From contig JAEOTB010000103.1 in NCBI GenBank assembly GCA_016840065.1, positions 1-15,025 of the forward strand: 15,025 nucleotides of DNA, given 5' to 3'. This document shows positions 1,468-15,025 of the stretch, piece after piece; the first letter of the stretch is position 1, and each line of letters opens with the position of its first letter. The notes beneath the pieces were generated by a model. That model worked only from the letters and a program-made list of their open reading frames with translations. It did no database searches and was not told where the DNA came from. This DNA comes from Candidatus Hermodarchaeota archaeon (GTDB taxonomy: Archaea > Asgardarchaeota > Hermodarchaeia > Hermodarchaeales > Hermodarchaeaceae). A program made the translations under genes and the position numbers.

Positions 1468-1500
1468 TTGATATATGAAAGGATGTTTAGGGGTGCTATC

Positions 1501-2247
1501 TTGACAACGCTACCATCTTTGACTAATTCCCTTAAGGAAAACCGAAGTAAATTAGCCTCTTTGGAGAACTCGTCGGCAAAGGAAATTGAGAATCTTTCAG
1601 CCGAGCACGATGCTCTGCTAGAGGTTCTAGAGCGTGTCCAGGAACACTGGAATGCTCAGTCAACCGAAGCTAAAGCTTTGGCGAAGGAGGCTTTGGATCT
1701 AGGAGAGGATCTAATTACTGTAAAGGAGGCACAGGAAATCCTTGAAAGCCGAGTCAAAGGCAAAAGACAGGATTTAGCTGTGAAACAGAAATCGCTTCAA
1801 GACCTTGAATCGACCCTAGATGGATTAACCAATAAGGTATCCAAGGCCGAGGATACGCACCGGTCGGTGGAGAGTGAGCTCCGTGATAAAGAGGAGACAC
1901 TCTCAGATAGGAGAGATCTTCTAGAATCACTGCAAGAAGACCATAAGGACTTGATGAGGAAGCTGGAACGTGAGCGTCTTGGATTAAGGGAGAAATATGA
2001 GGAGCTAGTCTCAAAGTACCACGCTATTAGATTCTTGCTGCGAGAAGATTTTGTAGATGCACCTGAGGCAAAAATACTCAAAGCGTTGGAAGGGAAGTCA
2101 TCGATCAGTATCGACGAGTTGAAATCCAAAACATCCCTAACCACTTATCGTGTAGAAAAAGCAGTGAAGTTGCTGACAGAACGCGGGGTTCTTGATTTCG
2201 CTTCAAGAAGCGGCGAAATTACAGTAAAGAGACAGATTCAGCTTTGA
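1501..2247 (+). CDS. Long coiled-coil protein with C-terminal winged-helix domain (copy A)
   Basis: About 185 aa of heptad E/K/L-rich sequence, then PEAKILKALEGKSSISIDELKSKTSLTTYRVEKAVKLLTERGVLDF (wHTH pattern). TTG 1501 follows GGGGTG; the track start is 1468. Confidence 0.8.
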   Translation: MTTLPSLTNSLKENRSKLASLENSSAKEIENLSAEHDALLEVLERVQEHWNAQSTEAKALAKEALDLGEDLITVKEAQEILESRVKGKRQDLAVKQKSLQDLESTLDGLTNKVSKAEDTHRSVESELRDKEETLSDRRDLLESLQEDHKDLMRKLERERLGLREKYEELVSKYHAIRFLLREDFVDAPEAKILKALEGKSSISIDELKSKTSLTTYRVEKAVKLLTERGVLDFASRSGEITVKRQIQL

Positions 2248-2261
2248 AAAATGGGGTGAAG

Positions 2262-2999
2262 TTGATGAAGGAATTAGAAAAGCTAAACACGATTTTGGAA
2301 CGAACTCGAACCCGACTAAAGGAGCATAAAGAGTTCGTGGAAACCCAACTTGCGGCCATCCAAGACACCTTACAAGAATGTGGTGAAACCATACCCAAGG
2401 TTGAAGCAGAATTATCCGAATTAACAACACAGATGAAGCAGAACCAGGATTCCATCGATGATTTGACAAGAAAGATAGATGAAGTGGAGAGACTTAATCT
2501 TCTGCGGCAGGAGGAGATTGCCACTCTTCAAACCCAGATCGACGAGTTAGATAGTGAAACAGAATCAGTTGAGGGGCGGATAGCTGATTCAGAAGAACGT
2601 CTACAAACAGTTACCAGGTCGTTGCGTGATTTCCAAACTGATTTGGAGGATATCTCGAACCAGATTCAGATGATTGAGCGAGATATCGAAGAGGCGCGAG
2701 AAGAGAGTGAGCAATCAGTTAGTGCAAAGAACCTTGAGCGGGATGAAACCGAGCAAGAACTTGAAACGCTTAGAGAGGATAATGCAATTGCAGATTTCCT
2801 ACTCGAAGCCGTCGGGGACTCGGAGGAGTTACGATTCATCGCTACGCTTATCCAGAAATCAGACCTCACTGTAGGCGAACTCTGTGCAGCCAGTGGAGCG
2901 TCCAGAGAGGCTGCCGACCAAATAATCGAGTCACTTGAAGATGAAGGCTGGATCAAGCTTCGCGGCAATGGCACAATCCGTTTCTTAAAACCCCTCTAG
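2262..2999 (+). CDS. Long acidic coiled-coil protein with C-terminal winged-helix domain (copy B)
   Basis: Heptad coiled coil, then EELRFIATLIQKSDLTVGELCAASGASREAADQIIESLEDEGWIKL. GGGGTGA at 2253-2259 precedes TTG 2262/ATG 2265; the track start is 2244. Confidence 0.8.
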   Translation: MMKELEKLNTILERTRTRLKEHKEFVETQLAAIQDTLQECGETIPKVEAELSELTTQMKQNQDSIDDLTRKIDEVERLNLLRQEEIATLQTQIDELDSETESVEGRIADSEERLQTVTRSLRDFQTDLEDISNQIQMIERDIEEAREESEQSVSAKNLERDETEQELETLREDNAIADFLLEAVGDSEELRFIATLIQKSDLTVGELCAASGASREAADQIIESLEDEGWIKLRGNGTIRFLKPL

Positions 3000-6770: not shown

Positions 6771-7715
6771 GTGCCGCATTCTGAACAGGAACTAGTGTCA
6801 TCGAAGACCAGACGGACAGCTTCTACCTATCCTGCGCGGCTACTAGAGAAGATGTTGGAGCGGAGGACACTGGAAACTCCAACTACAAAACATCATGTGA
6901 TTGTTGGGAATAGCCGCAAAATGCTCGAAGTGGCAGATAATTCTGTACAACTAGTGGTTACTTCACCCCCTTATCCTATGATTGAGTTGTGGGATGACTT
7001 GTTCCATCAACAGGGATGCCGGACCTTCTCCGACATGCACAATCTTCTAGCTGAGGTTTGGAGGGAGTGCTACCGTGTACTCATCGAAGGAGGAATCGCC
7101 TGTATCAATATTGGGGACGCACTGCGAAAAGACAATGGTGGGTTGAGGCTCTTCCCCAATCATGTACGTATCACCGAGCATTGTGAATCCATCGGCTTCA
7201 CCAGTCTCCCCTTCATTTTATGGAAGAAGCCGACAACTAGACCTAATGCCTTTCTAGGGTCAGGGTTCTTGCCTCCCAACGCATACGTCACACAGGATTG
7301 CGAATTCATTCTCCTCTTCCGTAAAGGATCACCGCGTAGTTTTCCACCTAAAGACTTCTTACGTTATGCCAGCCATTACACAAAACCTCAGCGAGATGCA
7401 TGGTTTACCCAGATTTGGCAAGTACCCGGTGCCCGCCAAGAGAATGGTGACCTAGACCGACGAGTTGCTGCGTATCCAGAAGAGATTGCTAAACGCCTTA
7501 TTCGGATGTTCTCCATTTACGGAGATACTGTCATCGATCCCTTTCTAGGCACAGGAACGACGATGAAAGTGGCAAAGGACCATCATCGTAACAGTATCGG
7601 ATATGAGATTGATGAAAGGCTCCTCCCAACTATCAAGGAGCGGATAGCAATACCACTCGATTCTGTGGAAACCGCTGGTCAAGCATCGTCGTTTAAAATC
7701 ACTCGTCGAGACTAA
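6771..7715 (+). CDS. Site-specific amino (N4-C/N6-A) DNA methyltransferase, beta class, orphan
   Basis: Catalytic TSPPY precedes the SAM-binding DPFLGTGTT; also A.YPEEIAKRLI and GYEID. The true start may be later (ATG 6852). Confidence 0.9.
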   Translation: MPHSEQELVSSKTRRTASTYPARLLEKMLERRTLETPTTKHHVIVGNSRKMLEVADNSVQLVVTSPPYPMIELWDDLFHQQGCRTFSDMHNLLAEVWRECYRVLIEGGIACINIGDALRKDNGGLRLFPNHVRITEHCESIGFTSLPFILWKKPTTRPNAFLGSGFLPPNAYVTQDCEFILLFRKGSPRSFPPKDFLRYASHYTKPQRDAWFTQIWQVPGARQENGDLDRRVAAYPEEIAKRLIRMFSIYGDTVIDPFLGTGTTMKVAKDHHRNSIGYEIDERLLPTIKERIAIPLDSVETAGQASSFKITRRD

Positions 7716-7832: not shown

Positions 7833-8696
7833 ATGTCGTTCGGTCAGGTTACCTTTCAAAGTGGTCAGCTCGTTCCACTAGCCTACGAGAGTGTCGCTAC
7901 AAAAATTGACAAGGTCAAGTTTGAGGATGAAGAAGGTCGCCTCGTAGTGTCTGATATTCGAGTAGTGTGGTACAAGACCAAGAAGGGTAGGAGTGTACTA
8001 AAGGGAGTTGCTGCTGCCATCGCTGTAGGTGTTGGCGGAGCAGTTGTCGGTCATGCAGCACGTCGCCACGGCGGAGTTGTTGGCGACATCGTCGGTCATG
8101 GGATTCAAGAGGGCACAGATGTCGCTGCTCATGCTATCATGTTCGATACGATAGCTAAACAGCACATGATTAGACGCGGAGAAGATGGCACTGCCGAAAC
8201 CATGGCTATACCGCTCCGAGCTATTGGCAATGCTACAGTTCATAAGGACAAGCTCATTATCACATTGAGCTCTGGTGATGATATCGATTTCGAGGGCAAA
8301 CGCAAGGGAAAGATGTTCTCCGTCGCTGTTGCTCAACTCATGACCGCAAAAGAGGCGAACAAATGCCCCTATTGCGGCGCGCGTCCTCAACCTGGTACTA
8401 ATGAATGCACTCGGTGCGGTGCAGCTGTTCAAGGCGGAACAGGGCCTACCCAAGCTGCTATGCCAGCAGGTATGCCAGCTGGAATGCCCGCGGGAATGCC
8501 TATGATGCCCGGTATGCCTCAATTCATGTGCCCGTTCTGTAAGAATAAGATTATGCCCGCCGAGCATTGTGTTAGCTGTGGTCGTAGACTTATGGCTAGA
8601 TGCTCGAAGTGTGAATCTGATATTCCGCTGTTTATGTTTGCAGGGGCGAAACGTTGCCCCCAGTGCGGTGGAAAGCTCGAGTACCCACAACACTAG
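7833..8696 (+). CDS. PH/GRAM-like domain with Gly-zipper insert, plus multiple zinc ribbons
   Basis: EGRLVVSDIRVVWY ... AIPLRAIGNATV..DKLIITLSSGDDIDF (PH-like pattern) split by GVAAAIAVGVGGAVVG. Six CxxC pairs and a PAGM linker. Confidence 0.75.
   Translation: MSFGQVTFQSGQLVPLAYESVATKIDKVKFEDEEGRLVVSDIRVVWYKTKKGRSVLKGVAAAIAVGVGGAVVGHAARRHGGVVGDIVGHGIQEGTDVAAHAIMFDTIAKQHMIRRGEDGTAETMAIPLRAIGNATVHKDKLIITLSSGDDIDFEGKRKGKMFSVAVAQLMTAKEANKCPYCGARPQPGTNECTRCGAAVQGGTGPTQAAMPAGMPAGMPAGMPMMPGMPQFMCPFCKNKIMPAEHCVSCGRRLMARCSKCESDIPLFMFAGAKRCPQCGGKLEYPQH
8460..8519 (+). repeat. Coding 12-nt tandem repeat (MPAG x3, then MPMMPGMP)
   Basis: ATGCCAGCAGGT ATGCCAGCTGGA ATGCCCGCGGGA; the three units differ only at synonymous positions. 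Confidence 0.85.
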
Positions 8697-8906: not shown

Positions 8907-9254
8907 ATGAGCCCAAGACCCAGAGCACGCCGCCGCGCCCACCGTCGCCGACGCCGCCAAATCCGTAGACGTACGCGACGTAGAAGACGTGCATATAGAC
9001 GACACCGAAGGCGCCTCAGAAGAGGAGATTGGTGGCTCTTTTCATTCATTGGCATTCCCAATCCCTTCCGAGTCCGCCGTAGGGACATCGTAATCATCGA
9101 GAAGGAAACTGGCAAATCGGTTGAAGATATGACGGAAGAGGAACTGATAGAGGAACTAGAGAAACGTGGAATCGAAGTGGAAGACCTCGATGATGAAGAA
9201 CAAGAAGCACTCGATGCCGTTGAAGGAGAAGAAGACGAGGGCCAAGATACCTAG
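8907..9254 (+). CDS. Small protein with Arg-rich N-terminus and acidic C-terminus
   Basis: MSPRPRARRRAHRRRRRQIRRRTRRRRRAYRRHRRRLRR, then WWLFSF, ETGKSVEDMTEEEL and a D/E tail. Confidence 0.75.
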   Translation: MSPRPRARRRAHRRRRRQIRRRTRRRRRAYRRHRRRLRRGDWWLFSFIGIPNPFRVRRRDIVIIEKETGKSVEDMTEEELIEELEKRGIEVEDLDDEEQEALDAVEGEEDEGQDT

Positions 9255-9870: not shown

Positions 9871-12870
9871 CTATGTGAGTAAGAATCCATTAAGGTCCTT
9901 TTCGTCTTCAGACCATTTCTCTGTGTCACTGGGTTCTGTAATACCCAGACTTTCCAAGCGTTCCTGTAGTTTACGGACTACTGGATTTGACCTCCTCTCT
10001 TTGAAGAGGAGTAAACAGTTACTAATGATCTGGGTTAGTTCAGTTTTAAAGAGGTCTGGGGCTTTCTGGAGAAGTTCTTCTTGAATTTCTAGTGCCTCTT
10101 GATAAGCGCGTTCCGCTTCCACAAGTTGCCCCCTTCTCTTGTTAAGGATACCAATATTGTTCAAGGTTGATGCGAGACATCCTTGGTAGAGACTTGGAGC
10201 TTTTGCGGCTAGAATCCTGCGCAAACGAAGGGTTTCCTGAAAGACTGATTGTGCTTCAGAGAACCTCCCATCCACAGCCAGTACTACACCTAGATTGTTT
10301 AGCGATGTGGCAACACCCAGAAGATTGAACTCGGGTGCCTCTGACGCTAGTTTCCGGCGGATAGCTAGAGCCTCACGAAGTACACTTTCAGCCTCTGAGA
10401 AACGTCCAGCCTGTCGGAGGAACACCCCATAGTTTGTGAGGTTAGCAGCTAGATGGCGACGATACAGGTCAGGAGACTTGCCAGCTAGCTGACGGTGGAT
10501 TTCTAGCGCCTCCTGGTACGCCATCTCTGCACTCTCTGGTTGAACGGTCTGACGGAACAAGATTGCCATGTTATTGAGGGCTTGAGCAACACGCTGCCCA
10601 TACAAGTCAGGGTTTTTTTCAGCTAATTCACGATAGATTCGAAGCGCTTCCCGTAGCTCTAATTCTGCCCCCGCTGGTTGACCCGCCTGACGATGCAAAA
10701 TCCCGTGCAAATTGAAGGCATCCCCCAGTATAACTTGGTAGACATGTGGCGTTTCCTTAGCTAGTGTTTTTGCAAGACGAATAACTTCCCTGCCATCCTC
10801 TTCAGCGTCCTTTACTCTGCCTGTTAGGATGAAGAGAGAAGTCAGACCCGCCAAGCAAAGTAATCCACCTCCTTGTTCTATGTTCGGCTCGTCCTTGAAC
10901 TCGTTGAAGCATGATAGGGCCTCATAGTATAGATCCTCTGCCTCATCAGGTTTACCCGATTGAATACTAAGACGACCAAGGGAGAGGTGTATATGCGCTG
11001 TGGATAGAGGGGCGAGTGTTTTACTTGACAGACCCTTGTTGAGTTCGATAACACTGTAGTATATTTTCTGTGCTTCTGAATATTGTCCTGTACTAGTGAG
11101 GAAATCTGCGAAGTGCCTCAGCGAATATGCAAGGGTTTCTCGGGCAGCTTCACTAGGGTTCTTAGCGACTAGTTCCTTGCTCAGCTGAACTGCTTCCTGC
11201 AATGCAGCCTCCGCTTCGGAAGACCGCCCTACTTCGACGAGGAGAAGTGATAGATTGGAAAGAGGATATACTATCTCAGGCAGGTACCTGTCTGGGTCCT
11301 GCATCATTAAATCACGGTAAATCCGGATACATTGTCGAAAGTCGTTTTCAGCCTCTATAATCCGATTTAGTGCGTGGTAGATTACGGCTCTTATTCGTGC
11401 ACGCATAGCACGACCCTCATCAGATGTGAATCTGATGAAATCGACCATTACTAGGGCATCAGGGTGACGCTCGCGTTTTATTAGATCATTACCAATTTCC
11501 CTAGCCTTAACATAGGTTAATGATTGGTCAGCAAACTCTCGTACGGTCAGCGATACTCCCATTAGACGGTAATCTGACAGCTCGATACTGACTCCCTCAA
11601 GGCGATCAGCGACCTCTTTTGCCAATCTTGGTAGCTGATCACCCAACTCGGCGAGTACTAGGTCACGAGCTAGTGCGTGTAATTCCCAGTAACCATCTCC
11701 TCGATCATGCACAAAACTCAACCGAGTGAGGCGCTCCCAATGATCGGTTCTTAGATTTGGTGCAGCAATTTCGAGTATCTTCTGATCAAAGAAGGGAATG
11801 AGACCCGCCTGGTCAATGAATTCTAGCAATCCCTCTGCGAGGTTGAGGAGGCGCCGCCATGTCTTCAGGCGGACCTGCTCCAGTGTTTCAGCACGCAGGC
11901 TTTCGACATCCTCTCCACTGAGCGGGCAGCATTCGGCTAAATCACAAATAGCGTTGAGGACAAAGGGGTTTCCACCACTAATACTCACGATTTGGGTGTG
12001 AAGCTCCGGAGGCACTCCCCGCTGAGTCAGCAAGTCTCGACTACTAGCCTCGTCTAACTCGGTGAGTTCTGCCTCCTCAATAGTAACTTCTGCACTGAGG
12101 TTTGGCGGCAGCGCCCTCCGGCTGGCAGCGACACCAACAGTGTTTGCCAATGAAGAAAGGAAGATATACCAGAGTTCCGCTTCACTGATTTTTTGGTCAC
12201 CATATTGCCAATAACGGTGTTCACCATCAACTGCTTCAAAGTGGTCTAACAAAATCAAGAGTGGCTGCTGTAACTGTTTCCGCCCCCTGAGATCCTCTAG
12301 AAGGGCGTCCAAGAAGAGGAACTCTGCCTGATGAGGATCCCTCCAGAGCACCTCTAAGACTTTCTCTACATAGTTATTGCCAAGGCGTGTCTGTAGCCAT
12401 CCTGCGACTGTTCCAAAGCGTCGTTTGAGCTGGGGGCGTAGTTTAGCTCCGACGGTTTTGATGGCTTTGCTGATGTCTACCATACTCCCAACAAAGGGGA
12501 GAACCTTCACTAAGTCAAACGCCCAGCTTCGACCGGGGTCTTGGGTAGGTTGGATGCCTTTTACGAAGCGTAAGCGTATTGTCCAGAGTAAATCGAATCG
12601 TGGAAGCTTGATGCCCTGCCAAGCAGCCGCCTTTGCGAGGGCATCTAGCCGGTTGAAAAGAGACTTGACTCGGCGGAAGTCTAGGAGAATGGTCTTTTCC
12701 ACCAGGCCTTTCCAACGCTCAAACAAGGAGGTTTTCCCAATTCCTCCAAGCCCCCTTAGATGTAGCACTACGCTTCTTTCTTGGCAACGGCTGAGGGCAT
12801 CGGTCATCCAGCCTAAATAGGACTCCCGATTGACGAACACCTGCTTAATCGGTTTATAACGCTCCCACAT
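9871..12870 (-). CDS. STAND-class P-loop NTPase with C-terminal TPR array
   Basis: FVNRE, Walker A GLGGIGKT, Walker B LILLDHFE, SGGNP (GxP), LHALARD (MHD-like). Repeats of about 47 aa: A.SLNNLG.L...GR..EAE....EAL.I.R.LA. Confidence 0.88.
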   Translation of the reverse strand: MWERYKPIKQVFVNRESYLGWMTDALSRCQERSVVLHLRGLGGIGKTSLFERWKGLVEKTILLDFRRVKSLFNRLDALAKAAAWQGIKLPRFDLLWTIRLRFVKGIQPTQDPGRSWAFDLVKVLPFVGSMVDISKAIKTVGAKLRPQLKRRFGTVAGWLQTRLGNNYVEKVLEVLWRDPHQAEFLFLDALLEDLRGRKQLQQPLLILLDHFEAVDGEHRYWQYGDQKISEAELWYIFLSSLANTVGVAASRRALPPNLSAEVTIEEAELTELDEASSRDLLTQRGVPPELHTQIVSISGGNPFVLNAICDLAECCPLSGEDVESLRAETLEQVRLKTWRRLLNLAEGLLEFIDQAGLIPFFDQKILEIAAPNLRTDHWERLTRLSFVHDRGDGYWELHALARDLVLAELGDQLPRLAKEVADRLEGVSIELSDYRLMGVSLTVREFADQSLTYVKAREIGNDLIKRERHPDALVMVDFIRFTSDEGRAMRARIRAVIYHALNRIIEAENDFRQCIRIYRDLMMQDPDRYLPEIVYPLSNLSLLLVEVGRSSEAEAALQEAVQLSKELVAKNPSEAARETLAYSLRHFADFLTSTGQYSEAQKIYYSVIELNKGLSSKTLAPLSTAHIHLSLGRLSIQSGKPDEAEDLYYEALSCFNEFKDEPNIEQGGGLLCLAGLTSLFILTGRVKDAEEDGREVIRLAKTLAKETPHVYQVILGDAFNLHGILHRQAGQPAGAELELREALRIYRELAEKNPDLYGQRVAQALNNMAILFRQTVQPESAEMAYQEALEIHRQLAGKSPDLYRRHLAANLTNYGVFLRQAGRFSEAESVLREALAIRRKLASEAPEFNLLGVATSLNNLGVVLAVDGRFSEAQSVFQETLRLRRILAAKAPSLYQGCLASTLNNIGILNKRRGQLVEAERAYQEALEIQEELLQKAPDLFKTELTQIISNCLLLFKERRSNPVVRKLQERLESLGITEPSDTEKWSEDEKDLNGFLLT

Positions 12871-14362: not shown

Positions 14363-15025
14363 CTACTTTATCACTTTCAGTTCTTTACCCACTTTCTCAA
14401 AGGCAGCAATCGCCTCATCCAGATCGTCCTTCGTCAAAGCCGCATTCATGATCAAACGGAGCCTCGCCTGATCTCGTGCGACCATCGGAAAGACAATCGG
14501 TAGAGCGAAGACCCCTTCGTCAAACAGACGGTTGCTCATCCGCTTCGCCTTCTCACTCTCACCAACAATGATGGGAATAATAGGCGTCTCACTGAACCCG
14601 GTGTTGAAACCTAAATCATCCATAGCGGATTTCAGTTGCTTAGTATTCGCCCACAGGTTCTTCACATGCTTTGGCTCGGTTTCTAGGATGTCAATTGCAG
14701 CAATACATGCAGCAGCCACTGGTGGTGGATGTGAACCGCTTAGCAGCCAGGTTCGAGACTTGTTCAGCGCAAAGTTGCGAAGTGATAGGCTTCCTGAGAC
14801 GTGTCCTCCAACCACTCCGAACGCCTTAGAGAATTTAGGCTGCTGAGGGGAGTGCATCCCCAAAGCATGTTCCCATCTCTACGTGGACGTCTTTGTGGGT
14901 GAGGTTGAAGTGGGAGACTATGCCGCGGCCTCCTTCGCCGAGGACTGCTTCGCCGTGGGCATCATCCACATAGATTGTTGCGCCGTGGGGTTTGCAGGCT
15001 TTGACGATTTTGTCGAGGGGGGCGA
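14363..15025 (-). CDS. kbl: Glycine C-acetyltransferase / 8-amino-7-oxononanoate synthase family PLP enzyme; 5'-truncated by the window and split by a 34-nt insert
   Basis: Upstream part APLDKIV..VDDAHGEAVLGEGGRG..VEMGT (15023-14869). Downstream part FSKAFGVVGG..PIIPIIVG..IVFPMVARDQARLR (from 14833) is in a different frame. kbl versus bioF is not firmly resolved. Confidence 0.88.
14835..14868 (-). other. Candidate bulge-helix-bulge (tRNA-endonuclease-type) intron in mRNA
   Basis: Insert AUGCUUUGGGGAUGCACUCCCCUCAGCAGCCUAA. Its removal gives ATG GGA ACA TTC TCT AAG (MGTFSK). The junctions form a relaxed BHB. Confidence 0.75.

Follow-up and report, generated by a model that had tools for sequence, protein, structure and literature searches.

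The kbl locus and its interrupted reading frame

The analysed stretch of DNA (the window; 15,025 nt) belongs to the genome of a Hermodarchaeia archaeon of the Asgard group, G000, and ends on the minus strand in a gene of the kbl/BioF family whose reading frame is broken by a short insert. The features of this locus are the following.

14869..15025, minus strand: end of exon 1, kbl/BioF family (TIGR01825 profile positions 180-230)
14835..14868, minus strand: candidate 34-nt intron of the bulge-helix-bulge (BHB) type, which EndA is predicted to cut at AC^A and AA^A; G001 and SRR14699980 have inserts at this site too
14835..14837, minus strand: in-frame UAA terminating the unspliced frame
14825..14827, minus strand: Lys codon of T-F-S-K, aligned with T-L-S-K of PDB 7POA
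14363..14834, minus strand: exon 2 with stop codon (profile positions 232-385), a separate 164-aa fragment in the NCBI annotation

Contig C18 shares exactly 127 nt with the window and holds the 5' part of kbl in intact form, and neither a second kbl copy in G000 nor another lesion in the gene was found. An intact orthologue scores 514/535 against TIGR01825, 445/460 against Kbl and 390/426 against BioF. A Zn-dehydrogenase gene (tdh-like) lies upstream of kbl in two relatives, its G000 orthologue being located on contig C17. The gene encodes a PLP enzyme of the BioF/Kbl family, most likely Kbl (glycine C-acetyltransferase).

Without splicing, E-M-G-T runs into ten foreign codons and the UAA at 14837-14835, and F-S-K-A-F-G lies in a different frame. 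The lysine codon is found two codons past the insert. Because this residue, which we take to be the PLP Schiff-base lysine of alpha-oxoamine synthases, lies downstream of the insert, the unspliced product would be nonfunctional. Only a 34-nt deletion recovers G-T-F-S-K. There are three equivalent deletions (14868-14835, 14867-14834 and 14866-14833), all giving the same spliced sequence, ATGGGAACATTCTCTAAG, in which ACA is joined to UUC; the first is the one that results from cuts between the second and third bases of the ACA and AAA bulges described below.

The motif G-T-F-S-K is unbroken in about 170 homologues. The spacing from D-D-A-H to S-K is 96-105 nt in 171 homologous matches, as against 136 nt in G000 and 130 nt in its nearest genome, the congener G001 (94% identical). 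Since homologue motif spacing alone defines both the length and the position of the insert, these are fixed without recourse to any RNA motif, and the BHB cut sites coincide with the insertions so defined (34 nt in G000 and in a contig from run SRR14699980, 28 nt in G001).

No second copy of the insert was detected in the genome, the best other match covering 17 nt (E 0.67), and the kbl insert hence lacks the multiple genomic copies of a repeated miniature element (MITE, REP). A group I or group II self-splicing intron or another Rfam RNA is excluded by the 34-nt size and by the lack of any Rfam match in the window. Relaxed selection on the exons had been named in the original prediction as an outcome that would speak against splicing; comparison with G001 instead gives pN/pS values of 0.047/0.56 and 0.009/0.67 for the two exons, which indicates purifying selection on both.

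Fold of the insert and its junctions

Two opposed 3-nt bulges flank a 4-position helix, which is the geometry of BHB introns, and the elements are arranged as follows.

14876..14881, minus strand: exon-exon helix, 5' arm, UAGAGA
14871..14874, minus strand: central helix, exon strand, GGGA (G-U, G-C, G-C, A.G); GGGU in G001, giving four pairs
14868..14870, minus strand: 5' bulge ACA, predicted cut after the second base; identical in 3/3 carriers
14841..14867, minus strand: intron hairpin of a 4-bp stem, a 2x2 loop, a 5-bp stem and a 5-nt loop
14837..14840, minus strand: central helix, intron strand, GCCU; invariant in 3/3 carriers
14834..14836, minus strand: 3' bulge AAA, predicted cut after the second base, then a U.U mismatch (14875/14833)
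14827..14832, minus strand: exon-exon helix, 3' arm, UCUCUA

The original prediction had described the minus-strand sequence from 14882 to 14827 with these helices and bulges, the break of E-M-G-T into a stop with F-S-K-A-F-G elsewhere, and cuts after the second nucleotide of each bulge that take out exactly 34 nt and bring T-F-S-K back; on each of these points the sequence agrees. The 6-bp exon helix, which it had also put forward, is present but lends weaker support than supposed, as it also arises in 16 of 55 homologues that have this peptide but no intron. This helix is largely dictated by the codons and is not independent evidence for an intron. At its silent Val and Ser positions, complementarity is seen in 28 of 54 sequences without the intron, where 16 would be expected (a comparison that ignores kinship), which suggests insertion of the intron into the loop of a hairpin already present in the mRNA. 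Apart from this, the complementarity in intron-less homologues could point to a conserved mRNA hairpin or to a trace of past introns.

A strict canonical hBHBh' motif is not formed in the window, where an A.G stands at position 4 of the central helix and a U.U beside the 3' bulge. Both junctions are relaxed in G000, and the class of the kbl junction is relaxed BHB/BHL (bulge-helix-loop). The BHB score of the site is equalled at about 0.3% of random genome positions when four registers are allowed, and the region folds better than its own shuffles (z -2.6). In this regard, a 2026 preprint warns that motifs with three of four pairs arise easily by chance and that relaxed motifs are weak evidence by themselves (10.64898/2026.10.13.758758). 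The case for the kbl intron is built on homology and conservation.

The minimum-energy fold is shifted by one base against the productive register (UGGG/CCUA) and is calculated to be 2 kcal/mol more stable; a cut in this slipped register would remove 36 nt and leave a stop. Nearest-neighbour energies favour the slipped register in G000 and SRR14699980, and it is possible in all three carriers, whereas in G001 the productive register beats it. The bulge begins with A in all carriers, a feature kept by the productive register only.

Inserts at the same site in related genomes

In G001, the insert at the same nucleotide is 28 nt long and has a different hairpin, with an 8-bp stem, together with the same ACA bulge and GCCU strand; its central helix consists of four standard pairs, and a separate assembly of the same run confirms it. 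The third carrier, the contig from run SRR14699980 (unrelated to the window's run), has an intron identical to that of G000 at 32 of 34 positions, even though exon 2 shares 86% protein identity and differs at 43 of 66 fourfold sites (65%). The carriers are separated by dS 1-1.7, with about 1.6 between G000 and SRR14699980. When the three are compared, and only three related sequences are available, 95% of cells are paired and three pairs have changed on both sides (16 of 500 shuffles); slid controls contain no double-sided pair changes. These comparisons indicate that the BHB structure is conserved across the three carriers while its sequence varies.

The near-identity of the G000 and SRR14699980 introns may be due to lateral intron transfer or, just as likely, to slow change, because G000 and a further genome, G003, likewise agree at 25 of 26 positions of the moxR intron. 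In a tree of exon 2, the three carriers form one clade with the intron-less G003 outside, and none of the 13 genomes of the other genus with a match has the kbl intron, a distribution that fits a single gain. A protein sequence from JGI 3300042731 (P0001) is 96% identical, sister to G000, and begins M-G-T-F-S-K; as far as a protein sequence can tell, it probably represents a precise intron loss. Its reading as the product of a spliced transcript was rejected, the sample being catalogued as a soil metagenome. In three Thorarchaeia-like genomes the kbl matches are split by contig breaks.

As a separate observation, kbl of G001 has a second candidate BHB intron upstream (L002 / L404, about 1028-1042), at T-D-G-V-F-S-M. 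It is 31 nt long, has four pairs in its central helix and a stem of 8 bp, and is absent in G000 and G003.

Candidate introns in other protein genes

A census that was blind to the motif, locating insertions by protein alignment alone, compared G000 with 2.16 Mb of G004, a genome of the other genus. It covered about 1,300 comparable genes, and introns shared with the G004 reference, such as that of dnaG, are invisible to it. Seven high-similarity frame-breaking inserts emerge in G000: one in moxR (26 nt), two in tuf (29 and 31 nt), the kbl insert (34 nt), one in each of two acs copies (31 nt each) and one in a C85 gene (31 nt). All seven show BHB geometry with A as the first base of the 5' bulge, and six have four central pairs. 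Their BHB scores are 14-21, compared with 13 or less for 63 in-frame control insertions. The dnaG intron is the eighth of G000, and G004 has four introns, one of them in cbf5, as the original prediction had anticipated in suggesting that the lineage holds further short introns. Motif-first genome scans were set aside as a means of finding introns for being too noisy (513,125 raw hits, and 43 candidates that were mostly unsupported).

The moxR and acs introns of G000 are common to G003. That of moxR (G000 C10 39546; L359 in G003) is absent from the corresponding locus of G002 (L357). The two acs copies of G000 (C105 284 and C113 13591; L378 in G003) differ by compensatory stem changes, and the duplication may reflect a strain mixture. 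In G001, acs (L374) is interrupted by an unrelated intron of 30 nt, one base downstream of the G000/G003 site, with an A.G at central position 4 as in kbl of G000. The cbf5 gene of G004 carries a 41-nt BHB intron (C4 12651, plus strand) at I-I-N-L-D-K, which G000 is without; in Crenarchaeota the cbf5 intron occupies another site, at the catalytic Asp. Introns of 29 and 35 nt also interrupt a roadblock-like and a CoA-transferase-like gene of G004, respectively.

Splicing enzymes and tRNA introns

Two EndA subunits, alpha and beta, are encoded in G000. The alpha subunit, whose best match is Aeropyrum EndA (E 6e-45), has the Tyr/His/Lys residues, and its K-P-K aligns to K44-P45-R46 in the Aeropyrum loop, which confers broad specificity (PMC12397907). 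The G000 enzyme is thus predicted to be of the broad-specificity (alpha-beta)2 type with the specific loop. RtcB is present as a 483-aa open frame (E 2.9e-170). Among the tRNA introns of G000, six of nine calls, some of them uncertain, have central helices with three of four pairs.

A probable spliced intron and its alternatives

Taken together, these data lead us to propose that the insert is a functional intron of the tRNA type in the kbl mRNA, handled by EndA and RtcB, with a probability of about 0.88; judging from the relatives, the kbl mRNA is almost certainly spliced. We infer that the pre-mRNA would fold in the productive register into a relaxed bulge-helix-bulge (bulge-helix-loop), that the two-subunit EndA would release 34 nt by cutting each 3-nt bulge between its second and third bases, and that RtcB would ligate the exons, giving T-F-S-K and a full-length PLP enzyme. 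Unspliced mRNA would stop eleven codons after the threonine, short of the catalytic lysine. The intron would have been gained once, in part of the genus, at the site of a pre-existing exon hairpin, and afterwards the BHB core would have been kept while the inner hairpin was altered in one lineage. A spliced mRNA intron in a metabolic gene was the central claim of the original prediction. It is supported by same-site inserts of different sequence, compensatory changes and purifying selection, as well as by the single gene copy and the presence of EndA and RtcB genes. The alignment to orthologues that it had proposed as a check returned same-site inserts in two relatives and an uninterrupted motif in the remaining homologues.

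Within the probability of this reading lies a refinement that we regard as rather unlikely, in which splicing of a real intron is inefficient or proceeds in two registers and acts as a throttle, so that splicing capacity determines Kbl output, the productive 34-nt cut competing with the slipped 36-nt cut or with retention. The availability of the slipped register in every carrier, and its being favoured in two of them, are in line with this notion; so is the A of the A.G, which occupies a silent third position and yet is kept between G000 and SRR14699980 despite their divergence. G001, however, has U there and a full helix, and the lack of the intron in the sister sequence and in most relatives argues against a conserved control function.

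If the insert were instead an inactivating one, either a small hairpin element or decayed mobile DNA, kbl would be a recent pseudogene. The in-frame stop and the frameshift within the active-site motif are what such an event would produce, and kbl may be dispensable. This explanation is nevertheless very improbable in view of purifying selection over three carriers at the dS values given above, a single gene copy free of other lesions, an insert with no second copy, and the occurrence of the same architecture twice in tuf, an essential gene, and in dnaG.

Translational rescue, by a frameshift or a ribosome hop over the hairpin in place of splicing, is also highly unlikely. A stable hairpin with a stop codon resembles bypass signals in general, of which T4 gene 60 is an example. 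A frameshift, however, would leave 9-11 extra residues inside a motif that has none such in about 170 homologues, and for a hop there is no matched pair of take-off and landing codons (ACA versus AAA, or AUA in G001). Moreover, the inserts of other genes have lengths that fall in all three frames, and yet BHB geometry is common to all of them. Finally, an assembly or sequencing artefact, conceivable for a metagenome-assembled genome of 84% completeness and 5% contamination whose contig ends 157 nt upstream, is rendered negligible by the near-identical insert in the unrelated run SRR14699980 and by the different insert at the same base in G001, seen in two assemblies.

Probable gain, loss and copying of mRNA introns

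Beyond kbl, the introns of tuf and dnaG bear on how such elements arrive at new sites.

G000 C10 75552, minus strand: tuf intron 1, 29 nt
G000 C10 107682, plus strand: dnaG intron, 31 nt
G004 C23: dnaG intron, 28 nt

The first tuf intron is identical to the G004 dnaG intron at 31 of 35 positions, including the exon target GCCUAC (the shuffle control for this match does not preserve hairpins), and is related to the dnaG intron of G000 as well. It is found only in G000 among the genomes covered, being absent from tuf of G001, of G003 and of the other genus. The intron was probably copied between mRNAs, tuf intron 1 deriving from a dnaG intron. This resemblance adds support to a mobile mRNA-intron reading, and we consider it fairly probable that Hermodarchaeia routinely splice mRNAs by EndA and RtcB and that small introns are gained, lost and copied between protein genes at the scale of a genus, kbl with its two independent intron sites being one example of gain and loss. 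If this is true, a live prokaryotic system of mobile mRNA introns would exist in the closest relatives of eukaryotes.

Relation to known splicing systems

In the literature searched, archaeal mRNA splicing is confirmed for one coding sequence, that of cbf5, and one 5' UTR. No paper on mRNA BHB introns in Asgard archaea was found in this search, whose coverage leaves most subscription journals outside, and a 2026 preprint on Asgard tRNA introns mentions neither mRNA nor cbf5 (10.64898/2026.10.13.758758).

The closest counterpart is the intron of crenarchaeal cbf5 pre-mRNA, known from Desulfurococcales and Sulfolobales (Yokobori et al., 2009; PMC2738675). Like it, the kbl intron is short, lies in coding sequence next to a catalytic residue, has a relaxed BHB with predicted cuts between the second and third bulge residues, co-occurs with a predicted (alpha-beta)2 EndA bearing the specific loop, and has been gained and lost among relatives. 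Unlike cbf5, an RNA-modification gene, kbl is a metabolic gene, and its host is an Asgard archaeon; its intron is one of at least eight in the genome, whereas that of cbf5 is a single case, and its presence varies within one genus. Splicing of cbf5 was confirmed by cDNA, while that of kbl is predicted from DNA sequence.

For Haloferax volcanii HVO_1309, a BHB intron located in the 5' UTR has also been described (Schwarz et al., 2020; PMC7714728). Like it, the kbl intron would be an EndA substrate within an mRNA, but the 46-nt intron of HVO_1309 lies outside the coding sequence and was verified in vitro, whereas removal of the kbl intron would restore a reading frame. Non-canonical tRNA introns of Thermoproteales and Asgard archaea (PMC4090602; PMC11291895; 10.64898/2026.10.13.758758) resemble the kbl intron in size, motif, predicted enzymes and repeated gain, and differ from it in that its host is an mRNA; sequence sharing between host genes has been described for the tRNA introns of Thermoproteales. 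The IRE1-type splicing of HAC1/XBP1 mRNA in eukaryotes (PMC4090602) likewise combines protein-only cleavage with joining by a tRNA ligase and shifts the frame, although the IRE1 nuclease and its motif differ from EndA and the BHB, so that the parallel with kbl is an analogy only.

If the kbl intron and its siblings are spliced, an Asgard class would splice protein genes as a matter of routine, and the tRNA-splicing enzymes would be needed for translation (tuf), for priming (dnaG) and for carbon metabolism (acs, kbl). Many Asgard 'pseudogenes' and split genes would then be mis-annotated. Nature provides a small test set at the kbl site: there are two different hairpins, central helices both relaxed and complete, a register that competes with the productive one, and relatives without the intron. 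The tuf/dnaG pair bears on the route of intron arrival, which the 2026 preprint left open for Asgard tRNAs.

Other features of the window

Elsewhere in the window, positions 1468-2999 (plus strand) encode two adjoining proteins of about 250 aa with a coiled coil and a winged helix, for which no curated family match was obtained, and an N6/N4 DNA methyltransferase is encoded at 6771-7715 (plus strand), with no obvious restriction partner adjoining. A 287-aa protein at 7833-8696 (plus strand) combines several zinc ribbons of the CxxC kind (DZR) with a linker of Pro/Met/Gly repeats, and it is followed at 8907-9254 (plus strand) by a protein of 115 aa whose N-terminus is Arg-rich and whose tail is acidic. 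Positions 9871-12870 (minus strand) encode a 999-aa P-loop ATPase with C-terminal TPR repeats.
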